In this document: positions 1 to 59,003 of the stretch, one piece after another
Layout of the letters: each line of letters starts with the position of its first letter
Position numbering within the stretch: position 1 is the stretch's first letter
IMG/VR virus record: IMGVR_UViG_2721755721_000001
Length of the DNA: 64,000 bases
DNA from: a virus
Taxonomy: Duplodnaviria; Heunggongvirae; Uroviricota; Caudoviricetes
Reading direction: 5' to 3' (one strand)
Notes under the pieces: generated by a model
Told to the model about the DNA's origin: nothing
Database searches by the model: none
What the model saw: the letters and a program-made list of their open reading frames with translations, nothing else
Program-made: the position numbers and the translations under genes

Positions 1-384
1 TTATGCGCGTGGATATACTTTCCGGCTAATTCTGCAGCTTTCTGCGGCAAAAGTGCATTTTCGCTTTCCTGAGCCGCCAGCAGCTCATCAAAATCCTCAA
101 GCGTTTCTCGTCCCAGCGCAATTTCCGTGCGCAGTTTTTTCATTTCCTTTGAGACCACGCCCTGACTTTCACGAAACAGCGTGCGCCACTCCTCATTCAG
201 TGTGTTCGTCGTGGCTTCCATTTCAGCGCGACGCTGGCGGATTGTCGCAATATTATCCGCTGCCGCTTTCTGCTGACGACGTGCTTCAAGCCATGCGTTT
301 CTGGCTGTGTTCATGGTTTCCAGTGCCCGCTGCGTTACAGCCGGAAAAGTGGAAAGGTTGTTATTTACTGCGGTATTGTTCATG
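1..384 (-). CDS. hypothetical coiled-coil protein (127 aa) downstream of primase and ori
   Basis: Not in ORF track (window edge). ATG at 382-384 (minus) preceded by AGGAG; stop at 1-3; translation MNNTAVNNNLSTFPAVTQRALE... Confidence 0.5.
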
Positions 385-559
385 ACTTCTCCTGTCGGGT
401 TGGTTCGTTACGTCAATTGTGTCGTGGCTGACACAAGCACACTATCGGTGCTCAGTGTGTGGTGGCTGGCACAACGGGCGCTTGCGGTTATTCAGACGTG
501 GCTATGAAAGCCAGCCAGATAAAAATGCCCTCTGTTTCAGTCTGCTTTATGTCCCTGAT

Positions 560-755
560 GCGGTGGAACAGGTGAAACATGTGTTACAGCTTTGTTTTAT
601 AAGGCATTTATATACACTGCACCGGTGGAACATCGCGGGTAACAAGGTGAAACAGCGGATTGGCTGGCGTTACATCTGTTCCACCTCACTATTTCAGAAG
701 GTGGAACAGGTTCAGCCCTGTAAAATACGGTTGTTCCACCTGTTTCACCTGTTAC
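560..755. repeat. Iteron cluster, about 8 copies of GGTG(G/A)AACA in both orientations; putative satellite replication origin
   Basis: Repeated ggtggaaca / ggtgaaaca and inverse tgttccacc / tgtttcacc in the 400-bp gap just downstream of the primase gene; P4 ori/crr lie at the equivalent position and carry short repeats bound by alpha. Confidence 0.6.
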
Positions 756-783
756 CCTTAATAAATAAGACTCACGCAAAGCC

Positions 784-3456: not shown

Positions 3457-3836
3457 ACTTCCCCCTCATACAACGTCACACCGGTACTGCAGAAGTCATC
3501 AAATGCCGCCGGAAGCGTGCGGTACATCTCCGCCATCACTTCACAGCCGCGCGCGGTCAGTACCGGCGGCGCGGTCAGCAGTGACGGCTCCAGCATGTCA
3601 GTCAGCAGTGCCAGCGCGGCAGCGGCGCCCTGCACTTCGCCGTACTCGTTAATCAGTACGCACTCGATATGCAGCGCAATGGCCATTTCAATACGCTCCA
3701 CCGTCAGGCTGTGCGGACCATACTGATCACTGCCAGTTTCGTTCAGCATTTTCTGCCGCCATGCTGAAGCAATAGCCCGCCGGTAAAGCGCGGTGGTCAT
3801 TTCTACCGGGAAAATGGAAACCTGCGGCTGGTTCAT
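3453..3836 (-). CDS. hypothetical protein (127 aa), satellite early operon
   Basis: ORF overlaps the primase start by 4 bp (translational coupling). Confidence 0.5.
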   Translation of the reverse strand: MNQPQVSIFPVEMTTALYRRAIASAWRQKMLNETGSDQYGPHSLTVERIEMAIALHIECVLINEYGEVQGAAAALALLTDMLEPSLLTAPPVLTARGCEVMAEMYRTLPAAFDDFCSTGVTLYEGEV

Positions 3837-4117
3837 CTGGCACCTCCTTCAATCAGTGCGCAGCTGTGTGCAATATCCGTCAAATCTGCCAGCAGGTACT
3901 CCATCAGCGCGGCGACACCAGGCGCACAGCCTGCGTCCAGTGCTCCGGCCTGAGACGGGTATTCAGAAAAGAGAAGCTGGAGCATGTCGCAGGCATTTCT
4001 TGCGCGGGTCAGCTTTCCGAAACTGTCCTCTGACAACCCATAGGCAAAAGCACCGGTATTGTGTTTTTCAGGCAAAGTGTGGCCCTGAGCACCGTTGTGC
4101 CCGTTTGAAATATTCAT
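3833..4117 (-). CDS. hypothetical protein (94 aa)
   Basis: ORF overlaps downstream gene by 4 bp, same operon. Confidence 0.45.
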   Translation of the reverse strand: MNISNGHNGAQGHTLPEKHNTGAFAYGLSEDSFGKLTRARNACDMLQLLFSEYPSQAGALDAGCAPGVAALMEYLLADLTDIAHSCALIEGGAR

Positions 4118-4148
4118 CGTGGATTACTCCGTTTTCAGCGGTATTTTG

Positions 4149-4538
4149 TCAGAGAAACTTTGAATAGTGACCGTCGTCAGGCTCAGCAGAACGCCGTATG
4201 CTACGCTCCCGCCAGCGGATAAATAGCACAGACGGATGCAGTGTCAGCGGGCCGGAACCACTACCGCCAGCAGGAGCTGGTGCAGGCTTCAAGAGCGGTA
4301 CATCAAACAGGCGCGTATACCGCTGTTCAAACCATGCCAGAGGGCAGGAAGAAAGCTTGTTGTCGCTGTCATGACGTATCAGCACTTCACAGCTGAATTC
4401 AGGATTAACCAGCGCCACAGAGGGCGAGGCTTCTATTAATCGGATAATCGTGACCGTCCAGCCACGTTCATGCTGCCAGCGTTCGCCGGGGTGCGGATAA
4501 TTACGCATGTTCACCTCCGCAGGGAATGCGCCCGGCAA
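4149..4538 (-). CDS. hypothetical protein (about 120-129 aa, start uncertain)
   Basis: ORF in operon orientation; overlaps the Icd-like gene. Confidence 0.4.
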   Translation of the reverse strand: MPGAFPAEVNMRNYPHPGERWQHERGWTVTIIRLIEASPSVALVNPEFSCEVLIRHDSDNKLSSCPLAWFEQRYTRLFDVPLLKPAPAPAGGSGSGPLTLHPSVLFIRWRERSIRRSAEPDDGHYSKFL

Positions 4539-4677
4539 AGCTCAGTACATAGTCCGGGGCAAGTCTGCGCCGCGCTGATCGTTCGTTATCTGCGGTGATC
4601 CTTAACATCACAGGACGGGCATTGCGTTGACTGCGGTTGATCGCCGCAAATAACCAGGTACACTTCTGTTTAGCCAT
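4501..4677 (-). CDS. Icd-like cell-division-inhibitor family small protein
   Basis: MAKQKCTWLFAAINRSQRNARPVMLRITADNERSARRRLAPDY... resembles P4-family Icd-like proteins; start placed at the internal MAKQK. Confidence 0.55.
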   Translation of the reverse strand: MAKQKCTWLFAAINRSQRNARPVMLRITADNERSARRRLAPDYVLSFAGRIPCGGEHA

Positions 4678-4793
4678 CTTCGTTACCTCATATAACGTGC
4701 TGGTCAGACGCCTCGGTGCTGCTGCAAACACTCCGGGGCGTTGCTATTTTGTTTTTCTGTGTGTAATGTGTCATTACACATAAATACATTACA

Positions 4794-4988
4794 ATGGGTG
4801 TAATTGACGTGTCAACACACAAAAATGAAAGACGTGGGAATCCGCCATTCCAGTTCCGACTTGACCCTGAACTGCGTGAACTGATGGAACAAGCACAACA
4901 GCAGGATGGCGATGAATCGCTAGCGGCTTGGATCAAGCGCATTCTACGCAAAGAGTTACAAAGCCGAGGTTTAGAACCAAAGAATTGA
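4794..4988 (+). CDS. small hypothetical protein (64 aa), divergent from the early operon
   Basis: ORF only; basic C-terminus. Confidence 0.3.
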   Translation: MGVIDVSTHKNERRGNPPFQFRLDPELRELMEQAQQQDGDESLAAWIKRILRKELQSRGLEPKN

Positions 4989-5037
4989 TTAATACGTTGG
5001 GGAGGCTTTTTTCTCCCCAGCTTTGTTAATATTGTCA

Positions 5038-5253
5038 TTACACTACTTCCTCCAATCCTGCTGATTGAGCTTTAACCCACTGCCTAATTTCTTGTGCATC
5101 GTAAACAGATACCCGTTTTGAAATGCGTATAGATTTGGGAAATTCAGGATTGTTCTTTTCCCAGCGCCAGAGAGTAACCGTACTTATTTGCAAAAAGTCA
5201 GCAGTAGCTCGTGGGCGGGCATGTCCAGTGATAGGATAAGTTTTTAATGTCAT
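5038..5253 (-). CDS. alpA: AlpA-family phage regulatory protein (HTH)
   Basis: MTLKTYPITGHARPRATADFLQISTVTLWRWEKNNPEFPKSIRISKRVSVYDAQEIRQWV - typical AlpA/Vis-type HTH. Confidence 0.8.
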   Translation of the reverse strand: MTLKTYPITGHARPRATADFLQISTVTLWRWEKNNPEFPKSIRISKRVSVYDAQEIRQWVKAQSAGLEEVV

Positions 5254-5355
5254 GAAATTACCTGCCGTATTATGTAATGAACACGGCAGATACTATGGGG
5301 ATATCAAAATGCTGTGAAGGTAGTGTAATCAACTCTACCTGTAGATTGTTTCAGT

Positions 5356-6237
5356 CTACCCCTTTTGTTTTAATCCCGCATGATTAACCGCTAATCGTAA
5401 TTTTCTTAAGATTTCTTGTTCATTAGTGATAAATATTGGAGGTAGCTCTCCTAAATGTTTAATTATGGCGTTAGTCCACTTTTCAGGACTTATCTCTTTT
5501 CTTTCACCACGACATTCGCTTGGGTATTTTGCTAATATATATATGGCTGCATTTAATAACCCCTCCCTATTTTTTGCATGATGCTCAGCAGTGTTATTTA
5601 ATCGCTTGGGGATTTTAGGTTCAGATGAAATTCTTTTCGTAAGTAAACTTGGCATAGGAATTCCAGTTTTTACTGATTTCCATATTAACTCTAAATCTCT
5701 TCGCATGATAAGAAGATCTTCAAATGGAATCTTAATTACCTTATTTCCTTCATATGAGGCCGTTGCCATCAAAACATTATCTCGTATTTTTACCGGTTTA
5801 AGCCTGAATTCATAATCTGGATCTATAGCTAATCCATTTTTTATGTCACTTATCATATCATCGGCGTACCAAATACCACAGGCAAATCCTATAATTTGAA
5901 GCCCATTTTCAAAATGTTCAAAGGAATCATCTTTAAGGTCATACCATATTGTTGAAAATTCCATCTCTAGTGATTGATTAGTTAATACGGGATGAATTAA
6001 GTCAATTTCCATTTTCTGATTTTTATTGAGGAAATTAACATTAAATCTAACTGCAAGTCCATCCGCCTTGAATGCGATATTAAAAGCGCCTATTTCGTAT
6101 AGATGTAATAAATCATCAATCTCGCATTCTAATAGTCTTGAAGCGCGTTCAAATGAACAATATTCTAATGGTGGTATTTTTTTGTCAATCCATAGATTTC
6201 CTAAGAATATAGTTTCATTCTCTGTTGAATGCTGCAT
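5356..6237 (-). CDS. hypothetical AT-rich cargo protein (293 aa) between integrase and alpA
   Basis: Long ORF with AGAGG Shine-Dalgarno; markedly AT-rich versus flanks; no motif recognised. Confidence 0.65.
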   Translation of the reverse strand: MQHSTENETIFLGNLWIDKKIPPLEYCSFERASRLLECEIDDLLHLYEIGAFNIAFKADGLAVRFNVNFLNKNQKMEIDLIHPVLTNQSLEMEFSTIWYDLKDDSFEHFENGLQIIGFACGIWYADDMISDIKNGLAIDPDYEFRLKPVKIRDNVLMATASYEGNKVIKIPFEDLLIMRRDLELIWKSVKTGIPMPSLLTKRISSEPKIPKRLNNTAEHHAKNREGLLNAAIYILAKYPSECRGERKEISPEKWTNAIIKHLGELPPIFITNEQEILRKLRLAVNHAGLKQKG

Positions 6238-6267
6238 TATGACCTCTGTTTTAAATTATAAGAGTAT

Positions 6268-7554
6268 TTAATTGATAATGTTAATACCTGATAAGTCATA
6301 AGGAGCATGGAATTCGTCCTTATTTAGTTCCAGATAATTAGACCACCATTGCATCATTCTGCGGCGTTCCTGCATGTGCTGCGCAAGATGCACATATGCT
6401 GCCCGCACTTCGTTTCTTTCTTGGTGACTCATCTGCCGTTCAACTGCATCGCGTGACCAGAGTCCTGATTCGGTCAGTGCAGAGCAGGCCATCGCCCTGA
6501 ACCCATGCAAGCAAACATCAGTTTGAGTGTCGTAACCCATCGTTCGCAGTGCTTTATTAACTGTGTTTTCGCTCATCGGTTTATATGGGTTGCTGTCACC
6601 GGGAAAAACCAGCAGATATTCACCACTGATTTTCCTTATATCCTCCAGTACCCCGATAGCCTGACTAGATAGCGGGACATAATGAGCAGCCCCCATCTTT
6701 GCACCCCGATCTGAGAATTTAACCCCTGCGATCTCTTCACGTTGTCCTGGTATCGTCCATAGCCCATTTTCAATGTCGATCTCCTCCCATCTGGCATGTC
6801 GTAGTTCGCTGGATCGCACAAAAGTGTGCAGGGAAAAGAGAACTGCTAGGCGAGTCAATGGTCTTCCCGTGTAACTTCTCGTTTTCGCTAACAGTTCAGG
6901 TAAACGTTCGAGAGGTAGTGCGGGGCGATGTCGTACTTTGGGGGCCGTAATTGCACCTTTTAGATCGTGGGCAGGGTTGTAATCGACAATTCCACGTTGC
7001 ACGGCATAACGGAAGATGCTCGTCATAGTGGTTTTTACACGGCTCGTTGTGGCACCAATTCCTTTCTCAGTCATCTCAACCAGCATCGGCATCAAGTCAC
7101 GGGTTTTGAGCGTATCGATAGGCTTTGAACCGATGGCAGGAAAGAGGTGGTTTTCCATTTCTCGGAGAATTTTTTTACGGGTGATCTCTTTCCACTCAGG
7201 ATGCCCCATCGTTCCACTATGCCACTCTCTGGCAACACTCTCGAACGTGGGGGAAATTGGGTCTTCCTTTTTGGGTTTCTTTGCTTCGCGAGGATCACGA
7301 CCATCGGCTAGTAGTTGCCTGGCTTCATCACGCCGTTTCCGCGCTGTTGCAAGTGAGACATCTGGGTAGACCCCTAATGCCAATGTCACTTGTTTTCCAT
7401 CAAAACGATAATTCATACGCCAGTATTTTCCACCAGTCTTTCGTACCAGTAGATACAAACTCCCTCCATCGGTAAGTTTGTAATCATTGGTCTTCGGCTT
7501 GGCGTTTTCTATCTGTTTGGGGGAAAGCACATTAATGGCCATATCTGTACTCAT
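6268..7554 (-). CDS. int: P4-type tyrosine integrase (start uncertain, ORF extends to 7602)
   Basis: N-terminus LSPKQIENAKPKTNDYKLTDGGSLYLLVRKTGGKYWRMNYR typical of P4-family integrases; C-terminal catalytic region with HGFR...Y. Confidence 0.85.
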   Translation of the reverse strand: MSTDMAINVLSPKQIENAKPKTNDYKLTDGGSLYLLVRKTGGKYWRMNYRFDGKQVTLALGVYPDVSLATARKRRDEARQLLADGRDPREAKKPKKEDPISPTFESVAREWHSGTMGHPEWKEITRKKILREMENHLFPAIGSKPIDTLKTRDLMPMLVEMTEKGIGATTSRVKTTMTSIFRYAVQRGIVDYNPAHDLKGAITAPKVRHRPALPLERLPELLAKTRSYTGRPLTRLAVLFSLHTFVRSSELRHARWEEIDIENGLWTIPGQREEIAGVKFSDRGAKMGAAHYVPLSSQAIGVLEDIRKISGEYLLVFPGDSNPYKPMSENTVNKALRTMGYDTQTDVCLHGFRAMACSALTESGLWSRDAVERQMSHQERNEVRAAYVHLAQHMQERRRMMQWWSNYLELNKDEFHAPYDLSGINIIN

Positions 7555-7814
7555 TTTGGTAAATTGATGGTATCTGCATATCGAACTGGGGAATACCATC
7601 ACTTATACCATCACGAGGTTGTAATGTCATGAAATTAACTGAAATGAAAATCAGGCCGATTCGGTGATAACTTACTGTTTTTTTAAGTGGTTATGTAATG
7701 AAGTGAAATGTAGAGAAAGGTCTTTAAAGTGTCCCCTGCAGACATCTACTTGAGGCAGCAGGGGATTGATTGGAATGGTGTTTTTTAGGTGTGAGAAATA
7801 TTTTACCCGCTATT

Positions 7815-8015
7815 TTACCCATTGGCGCGGCTTAAGAGCTTATTTTTGAATTCACAATGGTCACGATATAACCATCTTGCTCGACCGTGGATAACTTTGG
7901 CTTTTGGCAGGTCGCCGGACTTAATCCGGTCGTAGATGAAGGTTTTACCAAAGCCAGTATCGGCCATGATGAATTTCAAATCAACCAGTGAATCAGGTTG
8001 TAGTTCGTGTTGCAT
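7815..8015 (-). CDS. xis: excisionase / AlpA-like HTH DNA-binding protein (66 aa)
   Basis: Small basic HTH protein directly upstream of the integrase, GGAGA Shine-Dalgarno. Confidence 0.6.
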   Translation of the reverse strand: MQHELQPDSLVDLKFIMADTGFGKTFIYDRIKSGDLPKAKVIHGRARWLYRDHCEFKNKLLSRANG

Positions 8016-8057
8016 GAGTGCTATCTCCGAATAGGGAATCGAACCTGCAAATCAGGC

Positions 8058-8090
8058 AAGAAAAAACCGCCATCAGGCGGCTTGGTGTTC
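8058..8090 (-). terminator. rho-independent terminator (minus strand)
   Basis: Minus-strand GCCGCCTGATGGCGG hairpin followed by a T-run. Confidence 0.5.
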
Positions 8091-8146
8091 TTTCAGTTCT
8101 TCAATTCGAATATTGGTTACATTGTTTTCATATATGAATAAATAAA

Positions 8147-8422: not shown

Positions 8423-8797
8423 TCAAAGGGGAGGCTCTGGTAGCGGCATCCAGTGTGACGGTTTCCACGACGCACCAGGAATTATCCACCCATCATTAGC
8501 GTCAGGATGCCCCGGGATGTAAGTCGCCCATTTCATTCGCCAGTCACCTTTCCTGTCAAACTCCCTGGCAACAAGAACGGCTGTTTTGGTATCCGGCATT
8601 CGCTCACTACAGCTTATCCAACCATCAGGAGTTACCGGAGAGTTGCCGGGTTCTTTAATGTGCAAGCGAGGCTCACCATCTTTTGGCTCAGGCCACTGGC
8701 GCTCCATGTTGATCTTCAATTTATCTTCCATAGCAGCGGTAATTTCAGCATCGCTGATGCCAGCACGGCGCTGTGCATCCCACAACAGGAAATGCAT
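8423..8797 (-). CDS. lambdoid early-left hypothetical protein (DUF551-like)
   Basis: ORF in the early-left operon; separated in-frame from the upstream ORF by a single TAG. Confidence 0.5.
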   Translation of the reverse strand: MHFLLWDAQRRAGISDAEITAAMEDKLKINMERQWPEPKDGEPRLHIKEPGNSPVTPDGWISCSERMPDTKTAVLVAREFDRKGDWRMKWATYIPGHPDANDGWIIPGASWKPSHWMPLPEPPL

Positions 8798-8806
8798 ATC
8801 AGCCCA

Positions 8807-9052
8807 CTAGCTGAGATCGTCTGGTTCGGCTGCGGCTTCCAGAGCCTCTTTTGAGAGGTGTTTCAGTGGACCAATGGGGCCAACGCAGCCAAATGTGGAG
8901 TCAGACCATTTGGCATGCTCGTGGCGAATCAGTTCGCGTTCCAGTGATGCCAGTGCAATTCGTGCCAGTTCCATTTGTTCGCCACGAGTAAGCCCGTTTT
9001 CAAGCGGATTTTTAATGAACAATTCAATACGTTCTTTGGTAATAGTGGTCAT
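8807..9052 (-). CDS. hypothetical protein (81 aa)
   Basis: ORF in the early-left operon. Confidence 0.4.
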   Translation of the reverse strand: MTTITKERIELFIKNPLENGLTRGEQMELARIALASLERELIRHEHAKWSDSTFGCVGPIGPLKHLSKEALEAAAEPDDLS

Positions 9053-9062
9053 TTGTTAGTCC

Positions 9063-9818
9063 TTAAACTGCTAGTTGCAATTGCATTTCAAAGCGGTCGC
9101 GTTGTTCACAATACGCAAGAGAACCAGGGCTATTGTGTGCCTCAATCCGTTCTACCATTAATGCTGCGCGTGTCTCTTTACTTGCAGGTGCATAAGCCCC
9201 AGACCAGGCTTTATCAATACCGATGTTTCGAGCGACGTTCGTACTATCTGCGCTGGCTAAGGGTAATTTTGTGAATATCAGCGGATTTAACATGCGCAAT
9301 CCATGTAGTTTCGTAACCGGCTGACCATGCCCATCAACAATGTGACGAATCAGGTCTTTCATTCTGGCTACCGCAAGAGTTGGGCGCTTTACGTCATAGT
9401 CGCCACAACTACCGATAGCCACTCGCGGAAACTCATTGCACAAATGAATAAATCGCGCGTCACTTTCATTCATGTGCCACACTGGAACGCCAGCTAGTTT
9501 TCCGTGAGGCCACTCATTCAGAAGCGCATCATTTTCCTCCTCTCCGCCATCAATAATATCCGGGATAATGGCAAAATCGAATCCTGGGTGATTCTTCCAG
9601 CGAGCAACAAACTCGTAGTAATCGCTCCAGTCGATTTTGTTTTTGCCAGCTGCTTTCCAGGCGGTGAATGCACCGTTGTCCAGCGCGAACGACTGACAGT
9701 ATTCAGCCGCGAGATTGATCTGGCCTGAATGCGCAAAACTGATAAACGCATGTCGCCCTTTCCATGCTCTCATTGCGCACGTATCAGGAGTAATAGGCCC
9801 ACCGTGGTAGTGAATCAT
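9063..9818 (-). CDS. hypothetical protein (251 aa); weak, unverified resemblance to TGT/DpdA-like transglycosylases
   Basis: Start at MIHYHGG with AAGGAG Shine-Dalgarno, coupled to the upstream stop; DNGAF motif. Confidence 0.55.
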   Translation of the reverse strand: MIHYHGGPITPDTCAMRAWKGRHAFISFAHSGQINLAAEYCQSFALDNGAFTAWKAAGKNKIDWSDYYEFVARWKNHPGFDFAIIPDIIDGGEEENDALLNEWPHGKLAGVPVWHMNESDARFIHLCNEFPRVAIGSCGDYDVKRPTLAVARMKDLIRHIVDGHGQPVTKLHGLRMLNPLIFTKLPLASADSTNVARNIGIDKAWSGAYAPASKETRAALMVERIEAHNSPGSLAYCEQRDRFEMQLQLAV

Positions 9819-28954: not shown

Positions 28955-29299
28955 ATGAAGAAAAAATACGAACTGGTTGTTAAAGGGATAAATAATTACC
29001 CGGATAAGATTACTGTTACTGTGGCACTGGAAATTGGTGGGTATCCGTCACTGTTGTTGCCAAATGTGGCGATTAGTCTTGACCGTACTGAAGGTGCCAC
29101 GCTGGAGTTTTACGAAGCGGAGGCGAAAAAGCAGGCGAAGCAGTTTTTCATGGATGTTGCTGCCGGGTTATGTGAAGGGGATGGTCCGTTGCCGGAAAAG
29201 CGGCCCATCATTTTAGAGGCGCAGGATGTGTTGATAACCTACAGAGGAAAACTACCGGGAATAATTACTGGTTCTCTGAAGACTCCACCGCTGGCCTGA
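28955..29299 (+). CDS. hypothetical protein (114 aa) between holin and endolysin
   Basis: ORF only; unusual position. Confidence 0.5.
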   Translation: MKKKYELVVKGINNYPDKITVTVALEIGGYPSLLLPNVAISLDRTEGATLEFYEAEAKKQAKQFFMDVAAGLCEGDGPLPEKRPIILEAQDVLITYRGKLPGIITGSLKTPPLA

Positions 29300-29349
29300 A
29301 GACTTAACATATCCAGGGATTTGAAATCGATAAACCCTGATAAATATCC

Positions 29350-29883
29350 ATGAACACCAAAATCAAATACGGCCTGTCGGCTGCCGTTCTGGCGCTGATT
29401 GCCGCAGGTGCGCCTGCGCCTGAAATCCTCGACCAGTTTCTGGATGAAAAGGAAGGTAACCACACCACGGCATACCGTGATGGCGCGGGTATCTGGACCA
29501 TCTGCCGCGGTGCCATCCTGGTGGATGGTAAACCTGTCGTTCCGGGCATGAAGTTGTCGAAGGAAAAATGCGACCAGGTTAACGCCATTGAACGTGATAA
29601 GGCGCTGGCATGGGTGGAGAAAAACATCAAAGTGCCACTGACCGAACCCCAGAAAGCGGGGATCGCGTCATTCTGTCCGTACAACATTGGTCCCGGTAAA
29701 TGTTTCCCGTCGACGTTTTACAGACGAATTAATGCAGGTGATCGCAGGGGAGCGTGTGAGGCGATTCGCTGGTGGATTAAGGACGGTGGCAGAGACTGCC
29801 GTATTCGCTCAAATAACTGTTACGGTCAGGTATCCCGTCGCGACCAGGAGAGTGCGCTGGCGTGCTGGGGAATTGACAGATAA
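29350..29883 (+). CDS. R: SAR endolysin (T4-type lysozyme, GH24)
   Basis: N-terminal SAR segment YGLSAAVLALIAAGAPA, E-x8-D-x5-T catalytic motif (EGNHTTAYRDGAGIWT). Confidence 0.9.
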   Translation: MNTKIKYGLSAAVLALIAAGAPAPEILDQFLDEKEGNHTTAYRDGAGIWTICRGAILVDGKPVVPGMKLSKEKCDQVNAIERDKALAWVEKNIKVPLTEPQKAGIASFCPYNIGPGKCFPSTFYRRINAGDRRGACEAIRWWIKDGGRDCRIRSNNCYGQVSRRDQESALACWGIDR

Positions 29884-29972
29884 GCAGAATATTTTGCTGA
29901 AAAATGCGGTTTGCTCACACGGACGGATAACACGAAATCCTGAGAACTGACAAAAACTAAGTGAATAAAAGT

Positions 29973-30010
29973 AAAAACCCCATTTGTTGGCTGCAAGCGG
30001 GGTTTTGTGT
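29973..30010 (+). terminator. putative rho-independent terminator after the endolysin (repeated at 34865-34903)
   Basis: aaaacccc...cggggtttt stem followed by a T-rich run. Confidence 0.4.
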
Positions 30011-30181
30011 TTCCTGACTCCGGAAAAGTCAAAGGAGAAAGTGTGTTTGATTTTAGCAAACTGATTCGGGAGATTCGAGTGATGGCTGAAAAATTATCCA
30101 CCTGGAAGTTCATCCTTATCTGGCTGGTGTTTGTGATTATGGCCTCCGGTTATTTCATCGGTCAGATACGCTGGTGGTGAA

Positions 30182-30676
30182 ATGAACCGCGTACTGTGCG
30201 TGGTCATCATTGCCCTGCTGGTGGCCTGTGGTGCGCTTAGTCTGGGGCTGAATCATTACCGTGATAACGCCATAACCTACAAAGAGCAGCGCGATAAAAA
30301 AGTCAGTGAGCTGGAGCTGGCAAATGCAACCATTACTGATATGCAGCAGCGCCAGCGTGATGTTGCTGCACTTGATGCCAGATACTCGAGGGAATTAGCC
30401 GATGCGAGAGCTGAAAATGAAACTCTTCGCGCTGACGTTGCCGCTGGTCACCGCAGCCTGCGGATCAACGCCACCTGTCCAGGTCCCGTGCGTGAAGCCA
30501 CCGGCACCGCCCGCGTGGATAATGCAACCGGCCCCCAACTGGCAGACACCGTTACACGGGATTATTTCACCCTCAGAGAGCGGCTGATGACGATGCAGAA
30601 GCAACTGGAAGGGGCACAGGACTATATCCGCACTCAGTGTACTAAGCAGGCTTTTTATTATCCGGAGGATGTATGA
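30182..30676 (+). CDS. Rz: Rz i-spanin
   Basis: N-terminal TM, coiled-coil; embedded Rz1 in +1 frame. Confidence 0.8.
   Translation: MNRVLCVVIIALLVACGALSLGLNHYRDNAITYKEQRDKKVSELELANATITDMQQRQRDVAALDARYSRELADARAENETLRADVAAGHRSLRINATCPGPVREATGTARVDNATGPQLADTVTRDYFTLRERLMTMQKQLEGAQDYIRTQCTKQAFYYPEDV
30402..30587 (+). CDS. Rz1: Rz1 o-spanin lipoprotein (embedded in Rz)
   Basis: Lipobox LVTAAC, proline-rich. Confidence 0.6.
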   Translation: MRELKMKLFALTLPLVTAACGSTPPVQVPCVKPPAPPAWIMQPAPNWQTPLHGIISPSESG

Positions 30677-30897
30677 AGAAATTACAGGTAACGGTAAAAC
30701 CTTTTCAGGGAACAATTCCGTTCCGTGTTTTGCAACATGGCCGTGTTCTGCTTGAAGAGGTGTTCAGAGGTAAATGCACTGAATGTTATTCACGAACATA
30801 TGAAGTGAATGCCACGCATGAAGAATTCACCGTTGAGTGTGTGATGAATACTGATAAATGCCGAATGGTATCCGCTGAATTACAGCCAGTGTGTTGA
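30673..30897 (+). CDS. hypothetical protein (74 aa) after Rz
   Basis: ORF coupled to the Rz stop; conserved in the second copy at 35756-35980. Confidence 0.45.
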   Translation: MKKLQVTVKPFQGTIPFRVLQHGRVLLEEVFRGKCTECYSRTYEVNATHEEFTVECVMNTDKCRMVSAELQPVC

Positions 30898-31256
30898 GCG
30901 ACCTTATTATCCATGCGCGGTATTGTCGCCGTATTCCTGCATTAACAGAGACCGCAGCCCGACAGGGCGACTCCTCTGCGGGAGTGTGCGGGGATAATCA
31001 AAAACGATACACACCGGGGTTTACCGCGTAAACGGAGCGCGGCGTTCTCCCCTCATGGTCGCCCGTCCGGTGCGATGGTGGAAGAAACTGGAATCTGTTC
31101 AATAAAAAAAACTGCCGTGTTGGAGTCACAGCAGTAATGTACTGATTGGGTAGAAGATTATTATTGTTATGCTTTATTCTTATTCTATATGGCTGATTAT
31201 TTGGTAACCGGCTCATTTAAACCGTCTGGTCTGTTTCCTCCGGCTCTACAAAAATA

Positions 31257-31934
31257 ATGTCCATCATTTTTAATGGACACTATCGTATGAAACACCGGAC
31301 CTGGATCACTGAAGCTTTACGTCTTCACTTTGAAGAACATTTACCCCGGGTTGTGGCCGGGCGTCGCCTGAGTGTACCAAAATCAACAGTTTGTAGTATG
31401 TTCGTGCGCTTTCGGAGAGCTGGCCTTTCGTGGCCTTTGCCCGCAGGCATGTCGGAGCAGGAACTTGATGCCTGCCTTTACGGACAATTTTCCACGGTAC
31501 CAGTCGTACGTCCTGAAAGCACCGTTATATCCGAAGCCCCCGTGGTAAAAAAACGTCCCCGGCGGCCCAACTTCCCTTATGAGTTTAAAATCGCCTTAGT
31601 GGAGCAGTCACTACAGCCCGGAGCCTGTGTGGCGCAGATCGCCCGGGAAAACGGAATCAACGATAACCTGCTCTTCAACTGGCGCCATCAATACCGGAAA
31701 GGTGGCCTGCTGCCTTCCGGAAAAAATATGCCGGCACTGCTTCCCGTGACGTTAACGCCGGAGCCGGATAATAAAATCCCGGCCCCCGCACAGGAACCAG
31801 AGCAGATAAATACACCGTCCGACAGTCTGTGTTGTGAGCTGGTTCTGCCGGCCGGAACTCTCAGGCTTAAAGGTAAACTGACGCCGGCGTTATTACAGAC
31901 ACTTATCCGCGAAATAAAAGGGAGCAGCCACTGA
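31257..31934 (+). CDS. tnpA: IS66-family accessory protein TnpA (orf1)
   Basis: First ORF of the IS66 triad. Confidence 0.7.
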   Translation: MSIIFNGHYRMKHRTWITEALRLHFEEHLPRVVAGRRLSVPKSTVCSMFVRFRRAGLSWPLPAGMSEQELDACLYGQFSTVPVVRPESTVISEAPVVKKRPRRPNFPYEFKIALVEQSLQPGACVAQIARENGINDNLLFNWRHQYRKGGLLPSGKNMPALLPVTLTPEPDNKIPAPAQEPEQINTPSDSLCCELVLPAGTLRLKGKLTPALLQTLIREIKGSSH

Positions 31935-32281
31935 TGATATCTCTCCCTGCAGGTTCGCGTATCTGGCTGGTTGCAGGTATCACCGATATGCGAAATGGCT
32001 TTAACGGCCTGGCATCAAAAGTTCAGAACGTCCTGAAGGATGACCCGTTCTCCGGACACCTGTTCATCTTCCGCGGACGCCGGGGTGACCAGATAAAAGT
32101 GTTGTGGGCTGACAGTGACGGACTGTGCCTCTTCACCAAACGCCTGGAGCGGGGCCGCTTCGTCTGGCCAGTCACCCGTGACGGCAAGGTGCACCTTACT
32201 CCGGCTCAGTTATCCATGCTTCTTGAAGGTATCAACTGGAAGCACCCGAAACGAACGGAACGCGCTGGAATCCGCATATAA
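31934..32281 (+). CDS. tnpB: IS66-family TnpB (orf2)
   Basis: 115 aa, ATGA overlap with orf1, typical IS66 orf2. Confidence 0.8.
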   Translation: MISLPAGSRIWLVAGITDMRNGFNGLASKVQNVLKDDPFSGHLFIFRGRRGDQIKVLWADSDGLCLFTKRLERGRFVWPVTRDGKVHLTPAQLSMLLEGINWKHPKRTERAGIRI

Positions 32282-32300
32282 CCCGTTGTAAAGTGAGGAT

Positions 32301-33872
32301 ATGGACACCTCACTTGCTCATGAGAACGCCCGCCTGCGGGCACTGTTGCAGACGCAACAGGACACCATCCGCCAGATGGCTGAATACAACCGCCTGCTCT
32401 CACAGCGGGTGGCGGCTTATGCTTCCGAAATCAACCGGCTGAAGGCGCTGGTTGCGAAACTGCAACGTATGCAGTTCGGTAAAAGCTCAGAAAAACTTCG
32501 TGCAAAAACCGAACGGCAGATACAGGAAGCACAGGAGCGAATCAGCGCACTTCAGGAAGAAATGGCGGAAACGCTGGGTGAGCAATATGACCCGGTACTG
32601 CCATCCGCCCTGCGCCAGTCTTCAGCCCGTAAACCGTTACCGGCCTCACTTCCCCGTGAAACCCGGGTTATCCGGCCGGAAGAGGAATGCTGTCCTGCCT
32701 GTGGTGGTGAACTCAGTTCTCTGGGATGTGATGTGTCAGAGCAACTGGAGCTTATCAGCAGCGCCTTTAAGGTTATCGAAACACAACGTCCGAAACAGGC
32801 CTGTTGCCGGTGCGACCATATCGTGCAGGCACCAGTACCTTCAAAACCCATTGCACGCAGTTATGCCGGAGCGGGGCTTCTGGCCCATGTTGTCACCGGG
32901 AAATATGCAGACCATCTGCCGTTATACCGCCAGTCAGAAATATACCGTCGTCAGGGAGTGGAGCTGAGCCGTGCCACACTGGGGCGCTGGACAGGTGCTG
33001 TTGCTGAACTGCTGGAGCCGCTGTATGACGTCCTGCGCCAGTATGTGCTGATGCCCGGTAAAGTCCATGCTGATGATATCCCCGTCCCGGTCCAGGAGCC
33101 GGGCAGCGGTAAAACCCGGACAGCCCGGCTGTGGGTCTACGTCCGTGATGACCGTAACGCCGGTTCACAGATGCCCCCGGCGGTCTGGTTCGCGTACAGT
33201 CCGGACCGGAAAGGTATCCATCCACAAAATCACCTGGCCGGTTACAGCGGTGTGCTTCAGGCCGATGCTTACGGTGGTTACCGGGCGTTATACGAATCCG
33301 GCAGAATAACGGAAGCCGCGTGTATGGCTCATGCCCGGAGAAAAATCCACGATGTGCATGCAAGAGCGCCCACCTACATCACCACGGAAGCCCTGCAGCG
33401 TATCGGTGAACTGTATGCCATCGAGGCAGAGGTCCGGGGCTGTTCAGCAGAACAGCGTCTGGCGGCAAGAAAAGCCAGAGCCGCGCCACTGATGCAGTCA
33501 CTGTATGACTGGATACAGCAACAGATGAAAACACTGTCGCGTCACTCAGATACGGCAAAAGCGTTCGCATACCTGCTGAAACAGTGGGATGCACTGAACG
33601 TGTACTGCAGTAATGGCTGGGTGGAAATCGACAACAACATCGCAGAGAACGCCTTACGGGGAGTGGCCGTAGGCCGGAAAAACTGGATGTTCGCGGGTTC
33701 CGACAGCGGTGGTGAACATGCGGCGGTGTTGTACTCGCTGATCGGCACATGCCGTCTGAACAATGTGGAGCCAGAAAAGTGGCTGCGTTACGTCATTGAA
33801 CATATCCAGGACTGGCCGGCAAACCGGGTACGCGATCTGTTGCCCTGGAAAGTTGATCTGAGCTCTCAGTAA
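32301..33872 (+). CDS. tnpC: IS66-family transposase (TnpC)
   Basis: 523 aa; leucine-zipper N-terminus, CPACGG/CCRCDH zinc-finger region, DDE-type core. Confidence 0.9.
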
Positions 33873-33902: not shown

Positions 33903-34193
33903 ATTACTGTTACTGTGGCACTGGAAATTGGTGGGTATCCGTCACTGTTGTTGCCTGATGTGGCGATTAGTCTTGACCGTACTGAAGGAGCCACGCTGGA
34001 GTTTTACGAAGCTGAGGCGAAAAAGCAGGCGAAGCAGTTTTTCATGGATGTTGCTGCCGGGTTATGTGAAGGGGATGGTCCGTTGCCGGAAAAGCGGCCC
34101 ATCATTTTAGAGGCGCAGGATGTGTTGATAACCTACAGAGGAAAACTACCGGGAATAATTACTGGTTCTCTGAAGACTCCACCGCTGGCCTGA
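33903..34193 (+). pseudogene. 5'-truncated second copy of the 114-aa holin-endolysin intergenic gene
   Basis: Homology to copy A resumes at 29009 = 33903, mid-gene, immediately after the IS66 right end. Confidence 0.7.
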
Positions 34194-34243
34194 AGACTTA
34201 ACATATCCAGGGATTTGAAATCGATAAACCCTGATAAATATCC

Positions 34244-34777
34244 ATGAACACCAAAATCAGATACGGCCTGTCGGCTGCCGTTCTGGCGCTGATTGCCGCA
34301 GGTGCGCCTGCGCCTGAAATCCTCGACCAGTTTCTGGATGAAAAGGAAGGTAACCACACCACGGCATACCGTGATGGCGCGGGTATCTGGACCATCTGCC
34401 GCGGTGCCATTCTGGTGGATAGTAAACCTGTCGTCCCGGGCATGAAGTTGTCGAAGGAGAAATGCGACCAGGTTAACGCCATTGAACGTGATAAGGCGCT
34501 GGCATGGGTGGAGAAAAACATCAAAGTGCCACTGACCGAACCCCAGAAAGCGGGGATCGCGTCATTCTGTCCGTACAACATTGGTCCCGGTAAGTGTTTC
34601 CCGTCGACGTTTTATAAACGAATTAATGCAGGTGATCGCAGGGGAGCGTGTGAGGCGATTCGCTGGTGGATTAAGGACGGTGGCAGAGACTGCCGTATTC
34701 GTTCAAACAACTGCTACGGTCAGGTATCCCGTCGTGACCAGGAGAGCGCGCTGGCGTGCTGGGGTATCGACAGATAA
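34244..34777 (+). CDS. R: SAR endolysin, second (divergent) copy
   Basis: 177 aa, 3 substitutions versus copy A. Confidence 0.85.
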   Translation: MNTKIRYGLSAAVLALIAAGAPAPEILDQFLDEKEGNHTTAYRDGAGIWTICRGAILVDSKPVVPGMKLSKEKCDQVNAIERDKALAWVEKNIKVPLTEPQKAGIASFCPYNIGPGKCFPSTFYKRINAGDRRGACEAIRWWIKDGGRDCRIRSNNCYGQVSRRDQESALACWGIDR

Positions 34778-35258
34778 GCAGAATATTTTGCTGAAAAATA
34801 AAGCATGGCCACGCGGGCGGATAACATGAAATCCTGCGAACTGGCGAAACGTAAGTGAATAAAAGTAAAAACCCCGTTTGTTGGCACCAAGCGGGGTTTT
34901 GTGTTTCTGACCTTGAGTAAGGCAAGGGAGAACATGGCGAAGTATAAACGAATTCTGTTGAGGTTGACCATGAAAAACGGCCTTGAACTGAAAGCGCCTG
35001 TAACTGATGACATCAGCAGAGCACTGGCTTTTGCCATTAAGTGGGTGGCGGTCGGTGTTGCTGTGTCCCCGATGCTGTATGGGCTGGCAAAACTGGTCAT
35101 TGCGTTGAAATCGTGAAGGGAGGATTAAGCATGTCAGACAAACTCATAACGCTGGCGAAGATCCTCTGTGTAATTGTCGGCATTTCATTTTCACTAATGC
35201 TGGTTGCTCTTTTTCTTTCCATGGCCTGGATGATGTTGTCTTCGTCGGGGCTGCTGGG

Positions 35259-35759
35259 GTGAACATAAACCGAATGCTTTCCGCGTTTATCGTTATTCTG
35301 CTGGTGGCCTGTGGTGCGCTGTGGATGGCAACAGACCATTACCGTGATAACGCGATTACCTACAAAGCGCAGCGCGATAACAAAGCCAGTGAACTGAAGC
35401 TGGCGAACGCAACCATTACTGATATGCAGGTGCGCCAGCGCGATGTTGCTGCGCTCGATGCAAAATACTCGAGGGAATTAGCCGATGCGAGAGCTGAAAA
35501 TGAAACTCTTCGCGCTGACGTTGCCGCTGGTCGTAAGCGCCTGCGGATCAACGCCACCTGTCCAGGCTCCGTGCGTGAAGCCCCCACCACCTCCGGCGTG
35601 GATAATGCAACCGGCCCCCGACTGGCAGACACCGCTGAACGGGATTATTTCATCCTCAGAGAACGGTTGATGACAATGCAGAAGCAGCTGGAAGGGGCGC
35701 AGGAATATATCCGCACTCAGTGCACTAAGCTGGCTTTTTATTATCCGGAGGATATATGA
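35259..35759 (+). CDS. Rz: Rz i-spanin, second copy (divergent N-terminus)
   Basis: 166 aa; embedded Rz1 at 35485-35670. Confidence 0.8.
35485..35670 (+). CDS. Rz1: Rz1 o-spanin lipoprotein, second copy
   Basis: Lipobox LVVSAC, Pro-rich. Confidence 0.6.
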
Positions 35760-35980
35760 AGAAATTACTGGTAACCGTAAAGCCTTTTCAGGGAACAATT
35801 CTGTTCCGTATTTTGCAGCGTGGTCGTGTTCTTGTTGAAGGTTCGTTCAGTGGTAAATGTACGCAATTACACTCCCGGACCTTTCAGGTGAATGCCACGA
35901 ATGAAGAGCTAACCGTTGAGTGTACGATGAATGCCGCTAAATGCCGCATGGTATCCGCTGCATTACAGCCAGTGTGTTGA
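35756..35980 (+). CDS. hypothetical protein (74 aa), second copy
   Basis: Paralogue of 30673-30897. Confidence 0.45.
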
Positions 35981-36312
35981 GCGACCTTATTATCCATGCG
36001 CGGTATTGTCGCCGTATTCCCGCATTAACAGAGACCGCAGCCCGACCGGGAGACTCCTCTTCGCGAGTGTGCGGGGATAATCAAAAACGATACACACCGG
36101 GGTTTACCGCGTTAACGGAGCGCGGCGTTGCCCCTCATAGTCGCCTGTCCGGTGCGATGGTGGAAGAAGCCGGACGATGTGTTACCTCGCAAGCCCTGTT
36201 ATGTGTCTGATTTGTGATTTAAGTCGGATAATTGTCGTTGCCATCAAGCAGAGGATTGATGACCGACAGGGTGGCATTGTTAGAATAAGACTTATTCTTA
36301 TCTGTGCCGGGA

Positions 36313-36645
36313 ATGAAAATGAAAAGAAATCTTCCGTTAATTATTTTGTTGTCTTCTCTGGTTATGGGCTGTACGCAACATAAAACAGATATGCCCCGAC
36401 AATTGGTGAAGGCATTACCACAATATCCGGCCTATGCAGCGGCAAATTATATAAAGGGACGGGTTGATGTGAAGTTTGATATTGGTGCTGATGGTACTGT
36501 CACCCGAATTGAGTTTATCCGTTCAGAGCCGCACCATCTGTTTGATGAGCAGGTTGTAAAGGCGATGGCAAAATGGCGATTTGAGAAGGACAGGCCGCGT
36601 AAAGGCGTGAAGAAAACGTTTATCTTTAGTCCTTCTGCACCCTGA
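36313..36645 (+). CDS. lipoprotein with TonB C-terminal-like domain
   Basis: Signal peptide plus lipobox LVMGC; YPAYAAANYIKGRVDVKFDIGADGTVTRIEFIRSEP...FDEQVVKAMAKWRFE resembles the TonB_C fold motif. Confidence 0.6.
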   Translation: MKMKRNLPLIILLSSLVMGCTQHKTDMPRQLVKALPQYPAYAAANYIKGRVDVKFDIGADGTVTRIEFIRSEPHHLFDEQVVKAMAKWRFEKDRPRKGVKKTFIFSPSAP

Positions 36646-36776: not shown

Positions 36777-36977
36777 TCATTTCTCGTTATTTGTCATGCT
36801 GGCCGTACGCAGATGCGTTGCATCTGTTGCCAGCCTTCTCCTGCAGGCTTCAATAACCCACGCTGAAAAGTTACCGGACCCTTTATGCTCAAGGGCGATG
36901 TTGATCTGTTCAATCATCTGGTTTGGAAATCGGATGTTGCGGGTTGTTGTTCTGCGGGGCCGGTTTTTCGATGACAT
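36777..36977 (-). CDS. ylcI: YlcI/YnfO-family prophage protein
   Basis: MSSKNRPRRTTTRNIRFPNQMIEQINIALEHKGSGNFSAWVIEACRRRL. Confidence 0.7.
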   Translation of the reverse strand: MSSKNRPRRTTTRNIRFPNQMIEQINIALEHKGSGNFSAWVIEACRRRLATDATHLRTASMTNNEK

Positions 36978-37018: not shown

Positions 37019-37384
37019 ATGGCTGTGCTTCGTACGTTACCGGGCAGAATCAAAACTCTGAACACCCGGCGGGTGAATGTCCTGAAGGGTGAACAGCGTC
37101 GTGTCAGTGGCAGTGCACGTGTTTCCCTCAAGCGTCATATCTGGCTCAGGGATGCCGGGCAGTGCTGTCTCTGTGGTCGTGTGGTTGACCTCTGTGACAG
37201 TGAACTCGATCACCGAATTGCACTTCAGTTCGGTGGTGGTAATGAGGAGACGAATCTCTGGACGCTCTGTACCGAATGCCATCGACAAAAGTCTGCTCGT
37301 GAAGCGGCGGGTGGTATGCCGGACCCGACGCTGCCGGAGGTGTCCGGAGGTCATGGCAGGGCAGACGATATCATCGGACTGTGA
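37019..37384 (+). CDS. HNH endonuclease (terminase-associated)
   Basis: CCLCG...DHRIALQFGG...NLWTLCTECHRQK HNH motif; upstream of terS. Confidence 0.8.
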   Translation: MAVLRTLPGRIKTLNTRRVNVLKGEQRRVSGSARVSLKRHIWLRDAGQCCLCGRVVDLCDSELDHRIALQFGGGNEETNLWTLCTECHRQKSAREAAGGMPDPTLPEVSGGHGRADDIIGL

Positions 37385-58403: not shown

Positions 58404-59003
58404 ATGCGTAAACTTTATGCCGCCATTTTGTCCGCAGCCATTTGTCTGGCCGTATCCGGTGCGCCTGCATGGGCGTCTGAACATCAGTCCACGCTGAGCG
58501 CGGGGTATCTTCATGTCTCGACGAACGTTCCTGGCAGCGATAATCTTAACGGGATTAACGTGAAATACCGTTATGAATTCACGGACACGCTGGGGCTGGT
58601 GACGTCATTCAGCTATGCAGGAGACAGGAATCGCCAGCTGACCCGTTACAGCGATACCCGCTGGCATGAAGATTCCGTTCGTAACCGCTGGTTCAGCGTG
58701 ATGGCGGGGCCCTCTGTGCGCGTGAATGAATGGTTCAGTGCGTATGCGATGGCGGGCGTGGCTTACAGCCGTGTGTCGACTTTTTCCGGGGATTATCTCC
58801 GCGTAACTGACAACAAGGGGAAAACGCATGATGTGCTGACCGGAAGTGATGACGGTCGCCACAGCAACACGTCTCTGGCGTGGGGAGCTGGCGTGCAGTT
58901 TAACCCGATCGAATCCGTGGCCATTGATATTGCTTATGAAGGCTCCGGCAGTGGCGACTGGCGCACTGACGGGTTCATCGTGGGTGTCGGTTATAAGTTC
59001 TGA
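58404..59003 (+). CDS. lom: Lom/Ail-family outer membrane protein
   Basis: Signal peptide, beta-barrel pattern, C-terminal ...GVGYKF. Confidence 0.85.
   Translation: MRKLYAAILSAAICLAVSGAPAWASEHQSTLSAGYLHVSTNVPGSDNLNGINVKYRYEFTDTLGLVTSFSYAGDRNRQLTRYSDTRWHEDSVRNRWFSVMAGPSVRVNEWFSAYAMAGVAYSRVSTFSGDYLRVTDNKGKTHDVLTGSDDGRHSNTSLAWGAGVQFNPIESVAIDIAYEGSGSGDWRTDGFIVGVGYKF

Follow-up and report, generated by a model that had tools for sequence, protein, structure and literature searches.

A predicted outer-membrane lipoprotein with a TonB C-terminal domain at the lysis-terminase junction of a lambdoid prophage

The TonB_C Lipoprotein and Its Gene

The TonB_C lipoprotein is a small, predicted outer-membrane lipoprotein encoded by a lambdoid prophage (Caudoviricetes) within a 64,000-nucleotide stretch of DNA, IMG/VR virus record IMGVR_UViG_2721755721_000001, which is referred to here as the window. 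Its gene lies between the lysis cassette and the terminase genes, the classical moron site of lambdoid phages, in the order holin, lysozyme, Rz/Rz1, a 74-amino-acid (aa) open reading frame (ORF), the TonB_C gene, a ylcI/ynfO-family gene, an HNH endonuclease gene, and the terminase small and large subunit genes (Table 1). The gene is already annotated and its existence is not new. The RefSeq coding sequence (CDS) over it is WP_000828070.1, named "TonB family protein"; databases give the family no other name than this, apart from the legacy label "partial tonB-like membrane protein" and a spanin label in PHROGs. Full-text literature searches, which left out most subscription-journal papers, found no functional study of it.

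The conserved start codon is placed at 36319 because the RefSeq CDS begins there, a GGGAA element lies just upstream with AGGAA at the equivalent position in phage 21, and the first in-frame ATG is found in some alleles only. That first ATG, two codons upstream at 36313, gives a 110-aa reading; it is missing in phage 21 and 26 related loci, which read AATAAAAATG there. The gene is under purifying selection. The window and phage 21 alleles encode proteins that are 71% identical, with 1.34 synonymous substitutions per site (dS), 0.19 nonsynonymous substitutions per site (dN), and a dN/dS of 0.14, and dN/dS in other family lineages is 0.09-0.22.

The N-terminus, MKRNLPLIILLSSLVMGC, satisfies the PROSITE-type lipoprotein rule with a basic n-region, a hydrophobic h-region, and a lipobox Cys that is invariant in all 13 aligned family members. 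In E. coli, the residue after the lipobox Cys determines sorting, and Thr at this +2 position predicts Lol export to the outer membrane. The +2 residue is Thr in the window protein, which is why it is predicted to reside in the outer membrane; it is A, S, T, or V, and never Asp, in the family members examined. A tether of 7 residues (TQHKTDM) connects Cys18 to the folded domain, and the mature protein comprises 91 aa. The initial annotation had described a lipobox-containing small prophage protein at 36313-36645. The prophage assignment is correct, the lipobox agrees with both the PROSITE-type rule and the invariance of its Cys, and the ORF is real and ends at 36645 on the plus strand; only the start moves, to 36319.

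Table 1. Features of the TonB_C lipoprotein gene and neighboring genes in the window
Feature	Position	Strand	Description and basis
TonB_C lipoprotein CDS	36319..36645	+	108 aa, stop codon included (36643-36645); ORF list, sequence, RefSeq CDS
Lipoprotein signal peptide, MKRNLPLIILLSSLVMG followed by C	36319..36372	+	Cys18 codon 36370-36372; PROSITE-type lipobox rule
TonB C-terminal domain	36394..36630	+	spans residues 28-106 in the 110-aa numbering and matches positions 153-231 of E. coli TonB; profiles, PDB alignments, AlphaFold2 model
Shine-Dalgarno-like GGGAA	36309..36313	+	5 nt before ATG 36319; sequence
Candidate own promoter: ATGACC, 16-nt spacer, TAGAAT	36259..36286	+	consensus scan; extended -10 TGtTAGAAT 36278-36286
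Perfect 8-1-8 palindrome AGAATAAG-A-CTTATTCT	36282..36298	.	overlaps the -10; at the site of the canonical Fur box in other lineages
Lysozyme	34244-34777		upstream of Rz/Rz1; prophage lysis cassette
Rz	35259-35759		canonical i-spanin upstream of the TonB_C gene
Rz1	35485-35670		embedded in Rz; lipobox VVSAC
ylcI/ynfO-family gene	36777-36977	-	convergent with the TonB_C gene
HNH endonuclease	37019-37384		between the ylcI/ynfO-family gene and the terminase genes

The TonB C-Terminal Domain

Residues 36-103 match the Pfam profile PF03544 (TonB_C) at 5.5e-15 and 56 bits (gathering cut-off 24.6), and the protein matches TIGR01352 at 56.5 bits against a cut-off of 27.1. TonB C-terminal domain chains from E. 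coli and Salmonella in the PDB align with it at E ~1e-16, without gaps over TonB 153-231 and with 31 of 79 residues identical. An AlphaFold2 (AF2) model built from the 13-sequence family alignment has a predicted local distance difference test score above 90 over residues 28-110. Foldseek superimposes this model on TonB with a root-mean-square deviation (rmsd) of 1.3 Å for 1u07, 1.1 Å for BtuB-bound 2gsk_B, and 1.2 Å for FhuA-bound 2grx_C, at target-normalized template-modeling scores of 0.88-0.92. As modeled, the lipoprotein carries the complete TonB C-terminal domain fold, and its last β strand (model residues 96-105) is the counterpart of the strand through which TonB pairs with the Ton boxes of receptors. 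The TonB residues Y163, P164, F180, G186, F202, W213, and F230 are kept, and Y215 is changed to F, R166 to Y, and Q160 to L. A search of the BFVD viral structure library with the model returned nothing at E ≤ 1e-3, despite the family being common in prophages.

The initial annotation had recognized the domain from a residue pattern, named a profile hidden Markov model search as a check, and proposed a membrane-anchored TonB mimic. The matches, far stronger than chance would give, bear out the domain. The pattern is present with one spacer off by one (V.......S rather than V......S), which is immaterial, and the premise of a membrane-anchored TonB C-terminus holds up as a predicted outer-membrane lipoprotein that consists of this domain alone. 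The term "TonB mimic" fits less well; the protein is better described as a member of a distinct TonB_C lipoprotein subfamily and is not a recent copy of host tonB.

The lipoprotein is not an energy-transducing TonB. It lacks the N-terminal transmembrane anchor that couples to ExbB/ExbD, with a cleavable lipoprotein signal peptide in its place, and it lacks the proline-rich rod that spans the periplasm; without anchor and rod, it cannot transduce energy. Its 108 aa match only the last ~85 positions (~152-240) of the NCBIfam TonB equivalog models (PRK10819), at 50-73 bits against cut-offs of 265-448.

Family and Distribution

An exhaustive, profile-free search of 1.8 billion representative sequences added about 15 proteins, each ~110 aa long and 33-49% identical, in clusters named for E. 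coli, Salmonella enterica, the Klebsiella pneumoniae complex, Raoultella, Gibbsiella, and Rahnella. The 13-member alignment has YP.YA.AN, SEP.HLFD, and KWRFE..KP as common motifs. Three positions set the family apart from TonB: R166 is replaced by Tyr (22 of 24 members), A196 by Ser, and M201 by Leu. In a neighbor-joining tree, the lipoproteins separate from the TonB domains of enterobacteria, and phage members are interspersed with chromosomal ones; the split is recovered in only 23 of 100 bootstraps. Judged by sequence, and chiefly by the shared lipobox, length, and signature residues, these proteins form a distinct lipoprotein subfamily of TonB_C proteins.

Prophage members occur in E. coli, Salmonella, Klebsiella, and Serratia. 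Among the viral contigs and annotated phages examined, the gene invariably stands directly after the lysis cassette, co-oriented with it and before the terminase genes. The flanking endolysins belong to four unrelated types (GH108 with PG_binding_3, GH19, T4-type Phage_lysozyme, and the window lysozyme), and the flanking terminases to at least four large-subunit types (Terminase_6N, Terminase_3, GpA, and the window type). This recurrence of a single-gene unit across unrelated phage modules and hosts argues for a target that is conserved in all of these hosts, as the Ton system is. Among 5426 complete E. coli genomes, 417 carry the window allele and 1225 the phage 21 allele, two sets that may overlap; the share of complete E. 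coli genomes with related genes is roughly 25-30%. Carriers of the gene include Shiga toxin (Stx) phages.

Family members are also found outside phages. Six Raoultella/Klebsiella species have a syntenic copy by lacZ/lacI, a glycine-zipper lipoprotein gene, and a hydrolase or DUF1440 gene; Serratia grimesii has a copy between a ycgN-like gene and dsbB/nhaB; and a second Raoultella planticola copy adjoins EAL, GNAT, and IS110 genes. No transporter, binding-protein, or siderophore gene lies next to a family member in any context examined.

Two further observations concern the neighbors of the gene. In Raoultella/Klebsiella, the DUF1440 membrane-protein gene lies ~400 nt 3′ of the chromosomal lipoprotein gene (loci L087, L089, and L090, about 8730-9315), and a Klebsiella phage with the lipoprotein gene carries a DUF1440 gene 61% identical to the chromosomal one (L003, 1277-1903). 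The two genes may be a recurrent pairing. In Pantoea/Erwinia (L095, L098, and L101, ~8517-8972), a Phage_holin_8 gene comes after the lipoprotein gene. The lipoprotein gene also lies close to icd, where prophages are known to integrate, and the locus may be a cryptic prophage remnant.

Promoter and Fur Boxes

The gene is preceded by a candidate promoter of its own. By consensus count alone, the promoter scan does no better than chance. The -10 block is kept in phage 21 (TGTCAGAAT) despite a gene dS of ~1.3, and it is invariant in all window-type alleles. Overlapping the -10 is a perfect palindrome that contributes to a minus-strand match to the Fur 19-mer at 36284-36302, which scores 13/19, a score that 29 of 341 control regions also reach and that is not significant alone. 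The palindrome is invariant in an allele encoding an 89% identical protein (L204) while its flanking bases vary, and half of it survives in phage 21. No Fur box was found further upstream in either the window or phage 21.

Canonical Fur boxes occupy this site in other lineages. The 150 nt upstream of each family member were scored against the Fur 19-mer, and 341 upstream regions of other ORFs from the same loci, including real Fur-regulated genes such as tonB, served as controls. Scores of at least 15/19 occur in six of ~14 lineages, 6-52 nt before the start codon, compared with 7 of 341 controls. Perfect TGATAATnATTATCA sites are found in Raoultella/Klebsiella and in a Salmonella prophage lineage: Raoultella lignicola and Klebsiella sp. 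R390 (L085, L086) have the 7-1-7 box TGATAATTATTATCA, and the Salmonella lineage has the 7-1-7 box TGATAATCATTATCA at one locus (L158) and TGATAATTATTATCA at another (L164). A second Raoultella/Klebsiella lineage has TGAGAATTATTATCA. Serratia grimesii scores 17/19, the Serratia prophage lineage and Erwinia typographi 16/19 each, the Pantoea/Erwinia lineage 13-14/19, and the Klebsiella-phage lineage 12-14/19.

From these boxes, the lipoprotein family is very probably iron-repressed. Their presence before many members would make the phage copies true morons with a regulated promoter of their own, and it ties the family to iron and the Ton regulon.

Fur 7-1-7 matches also occur 3′ of the gene at more than 30 loci of the lambda-cos type. 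These were set aside, as they lie ~40 nt left of cosN and belong to the cos region. The exact Fur word TGATAATTATTATCA precedes the lambda-type cosN GGGCGGCGACCT at L039 (6793-6807) and more than 30 similar loci; since this word is part of the cos region, Fur predictions made from the motif alone can mislead in lambdoid phages.

Prophage Context

In phage 21, the TonB_C gene adjoins bor and lies a few hundred bases from cos. No intrinsic terminator was found 3′ of the gene in the window. A block upstream of the gene (window 36120-36210; L001, 3852-3989) is conserved with phage 21 (CCGGTGCGATGGTGGAAGAA...), where it holds the 45-aa hypothetical ORF CPT_21_72, and the moron may include this second small gene.

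The lysis region of the window is doubled: 29009-30018 and 33903-34911 share 96% nucleotide identity, and 30170-31086 and 35253-36168 share 87.5%. Transposase ORFs (phrog_2422, phrog_688) lie between the two copies, in 31257-33872, and the TonB_C gene follows the second copy only. This arrangement suggests that two prophage late regions were joined or duplicated through an insertion sequence. The left end of the window (1-8120) is a P4-like satellite element separate from the lambdoid prophage, and RefSeq names over DNA matching it include a TOPRIM/DUF927 primase, an integrase, and a phage polarity suppression protein. At the right end, beyond Lom (58404-59003) and the tail-fiber genes, are a transposase-like ORF (61106-61609) and a second integrase (62843-64000, minus strand), which may mark the prophage border or another integrated element.

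Proposed Function

What we infer for the localization, promoter use, binding partner, and phenotype of the TonB_C lipoprotein leads to the following proposal: a TonB head tethered to the outer membrane competes with TonB and damps the TonB-dependent entry of phages and toxins. We assign this a probability of about 45%. Competition for TonB boxes, with a block of TonB-dependent phages and colicins, was also the idea of the initial annotation, and it is partly supported. The gene would act as a self-contained moron, transcribed in the prophage from its own promoter just upstream, and during lytic growth read-through of the late operon probably transcribes it as well. In lineages with a Fur box over the promoter, the protein would be produced under iron scarcity, when TonB-dependent receptors are plentiful; in the window allele, the operator would have degenerated to the palindrome. 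The 7-residue tether would hang the head on the inner face of the outer membrane, directly beneath the TonB-dependent transporters. There the head could bind the transporters, either at their Ton boxes through its last strand or at their periplasmic faces, or bind TonB itself, and compete with TonB without delivering energy. T1- and phi80-type phages, group B colicins, microcins, and siderophore-drug conjugates would then enter less, at the cost of a partial loss of siderophore and vitamin B12 uptake. Fur coupling would scale this shield with receptor abundance.

The proposal has precedents. Overexpression of a periplasmic TonB domain inhibits TonB-dependent iron import, according to the account of this work given in PMC9841981 (Howard 2001). 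Llp of phage T5 is a lipoprotein of the inner leaflet of the outer membrane that binds FhuA from the periplasmic side and excludes phages, as outlined in PMC9586334 and bioRxiv 2026.03.26.714494. By analogy, a decoy or exclusion function is plausible. Howard, Herrmann, Stratilo, and Braun are said to have found in 2001 that periplasmic TonB fragments also inhibited phi80 and colicin M.

A broader form of the proposal is that ancestrally Fur-regulated outer-membrane TonB heads, spread by prophages in E. coli and in many Salmonella and Klebsiella, cap the Ton boxes of all TonB-dependent transporters and thereby make lysogens resistant, in a graded and iron-coupled way, to TonB-dependent phages, group B colicins, microcins, and siderophore-antibiotic conjugates. 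In this sweeping form, it is doubtful.

Several points weigh against a shield. Fur-coupled expression would inhibit iron uptake just when iron is needed, and this cost would be heaviest for the stable non-prophage chromosomal copies of Raoultella, Klebsiella, and Serratia; conserved chromosomal members fit a physiological, non-defensive role just as well. Arg166 of TonB contacts FhuA in the crystal complex, and its replacement by Tyr in 22 of 24 family members means that the partner may differ from that of TonB. The window and phage 21 alleles are without a canonical Fur box, which makes iron regulation of the window gene uncertain. The PADLOC defense models give no match to the lipoprotein, and no cor-like exclusion gene was found near the tail genes among the prophage ORFs scanned. 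The prophage J protein has a C-terminus of the VT1-Sakai/Stx-phage type that shares ~50% identity with lambda J; it was not recognized as any known TonB-dependent host-range type, and it gives no receptor clue.

Alternative Roles in the Envelope

The TonB_C lipoprotein may instead be an accessory of iron homeostasis, its tethered TonB-like head assisting or adjusting uptake when iron is limiting. The head might provide a docking site under the receptors for periplasmic binding proteins, ready ligand-loaded receptors for TonB, or ration scarce TonB among receptors. On this reading, the prophage copy would be a moron that benefits fitness or virulence in host niches poor in iron. The canonical Fur boxes of many lineages argue for this role, as do the syntenic chromosomal copies (six Raoultella/Klebsiella species and Serratia grimesii) under purifying selection, and the R166Y, A196S, and M201L changes hint at a partner set other than that of TonB. 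Against it, the protein is unconnected to the proton-motive force, the contexts examined hold no adjacent transporter, binding-protein, or siderophore gene, and in the only experimental data, those recounted in PMC9841981, anchorless TonB domains inhibit rather than help. On balance, we consider it unlikely. It explains the Fur boxes and the stable chromosomal copies no less well than the shield does, which is the main reason why confidence in the shield is not higher.

The remaining alternatives are progressively less compatible with the data. In one, the protein has another outer-membrane or periplasmic partner unrelated to Ton boxes, and the TonB_C fold is a generic strand-augmentation module serving, for example, peptidoglycan or envelope tethering or a serum resistance like that of Bor/Iss. 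The gene shares its moron site with bor and adjoins it in phage 21, the C-terminal fold of TonB and TolA serves varied partners, and TolA domain III complexes are among the weak Foldseek matches. The domain is nonetheless much closer to enterobacterial TonB (E ~1e-16, rmsd 1.1-1.3 Å) than to TolA and other proteins with this fold (rmsd at least 5 Å), and the Fur boxes indicate a tie to iron and the Ton system. An unrelated partner is quite improbable.

A role in lysis is suggested by the PHROGs database. The family itself is phrog_1267, which matches the protein end to end (window 36313-36642) at 1.9e-42 and is labeled "Rz-like spanin". The PHROGs matches at E ≤ 1 consist of phrog_1267, two families labeled Rz-like spanin, and families of unknown function, with no exclusion family among them. 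An o-spanin identity can be rejected: a genuine Rz/Rz1 pair is present, the TonB_C gene begins 560 nt past the end of Rz and is neither within nor adjacent to it, and the mature protein is a folded domain of 91 aa. The label most likely derives from the position after the lysis genes together with the lipobox, and it is likely a propagating misannotation. Apart from this label, the idea that the protein is a late-expressed outer-membrane lipoprotein that aids envelope disruption draws on the position of the gene, directly 3′ of the lysis cassette and co-oriented with it in all phages examined. Canonical Rz with embedded Rz1 already serves the window, phage 21 likewise has an annotated i-spanin and o-spanin besides its TonB_C gene, a folded 80-residue domain is unlike the short proline-rich o-spanins, and the family includes non-phage loci and Fur boxes. 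A lysis accessory is very improbable. That the gene is a functionless 3′ end of host tonB taken up by a phage, as the legacy wording "partial tonB-like membrane protein" and the presence of the C-terminal domain alone might imply, is scarcely credible and effectively refuted by the selection and conservation data: a dN/dS of 0.09-0.22, an acquired and invariant lipoprotein signal peptide, a promoter/operator region of its own, family signatures distinct from host TonB, and intact copies in hundreds of genomes.

Significance and Comparison with Known Systems

New here are the recognition of a distinct family rather than a tonB remnant, its phage and chromosomal members under selection, the Fur boxes, the high prevalence, and the PHROGs label that is likely wrong. 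If Ton-box capping is true, the lipoprotein would be the first natural dominant-negative TonB, and a single gene would alter susceptibility to an entire class of phages, colicins, microcins, and Trojan-horse antibiotics. A shield of this kind would be a receptor-blocking exclusion that is class-wide via the Ton box rather than receptor-specific, and it would bear on receptor choice in phage therapy, on predicting the uptake of cefiderocol-type drugs, and on the trade-off of lysogens between iron supply and protection. Should the protein prove to aid uptake, it would add a new accessory part to the Ton system, itself well studied. The shield hypothesis is directly testable with existing reagents: phage 21, K-12, and standard colicins.

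The closest known relative is TonB itself (P02929; 1u07, 1xx3, 2gsk, 2grx), with which the lipoprotein shares the C-terminal domain (31/79 identical, 1.1-1.3 Å), the YP motif, the aromatic residues, and the last strand. It differs from TonB in being a lipoprotein with a signal peptide and a predicted outer-membrane anchor, in its length of 108 aa versus 239, and in R166Y, A196S, and M201L. Like the Rz1-type o-spanins, it is a predicted outer-membrane lipoprotein encoded near lysis genes; unlike them, it is not embedded in or adjacent to Rz, it has a folded TonB_C domain, and a real Rz/Rz1 is present as well. With Bor/Iss of lambda-like phages, it shares the niche between lysis cassette and cos/terminase, the form of a small outer-membrane lipoprotein (predicted here), and probable expression outside the phage program. 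The fold of Bor/Iss is unrelated, and bor is antisense to the late operon whereas the TonB_C gene is co-oriented with it.

The engineered periplasmic TonB fragments (Howard, Herrmann, Stratilo, and Braun 2001, J Bacteriol 183:5885) resemble the lipoprotein in presenting an anchorless TonB C-terminal portion in the periplasm. The lipoprotein is natural, lipid-anchored by prediction, shorter (equivalent to TonB 153-231), and diverged, and it has a candidate promoter of its own. Cor of phi80/N15/HK022-type phages is a small phage-encoded lipoprotein, and the TonB_C lipoprotein, whose localization is predicted, resembles both Cor and T5 Llp in this respect. It has no sequence relationship to either and matches no PHROG exclusion family. 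Whereas Llp and Cor each target one receptor, a TonB head could in principle address the whole class of TonB-dependent transporters.

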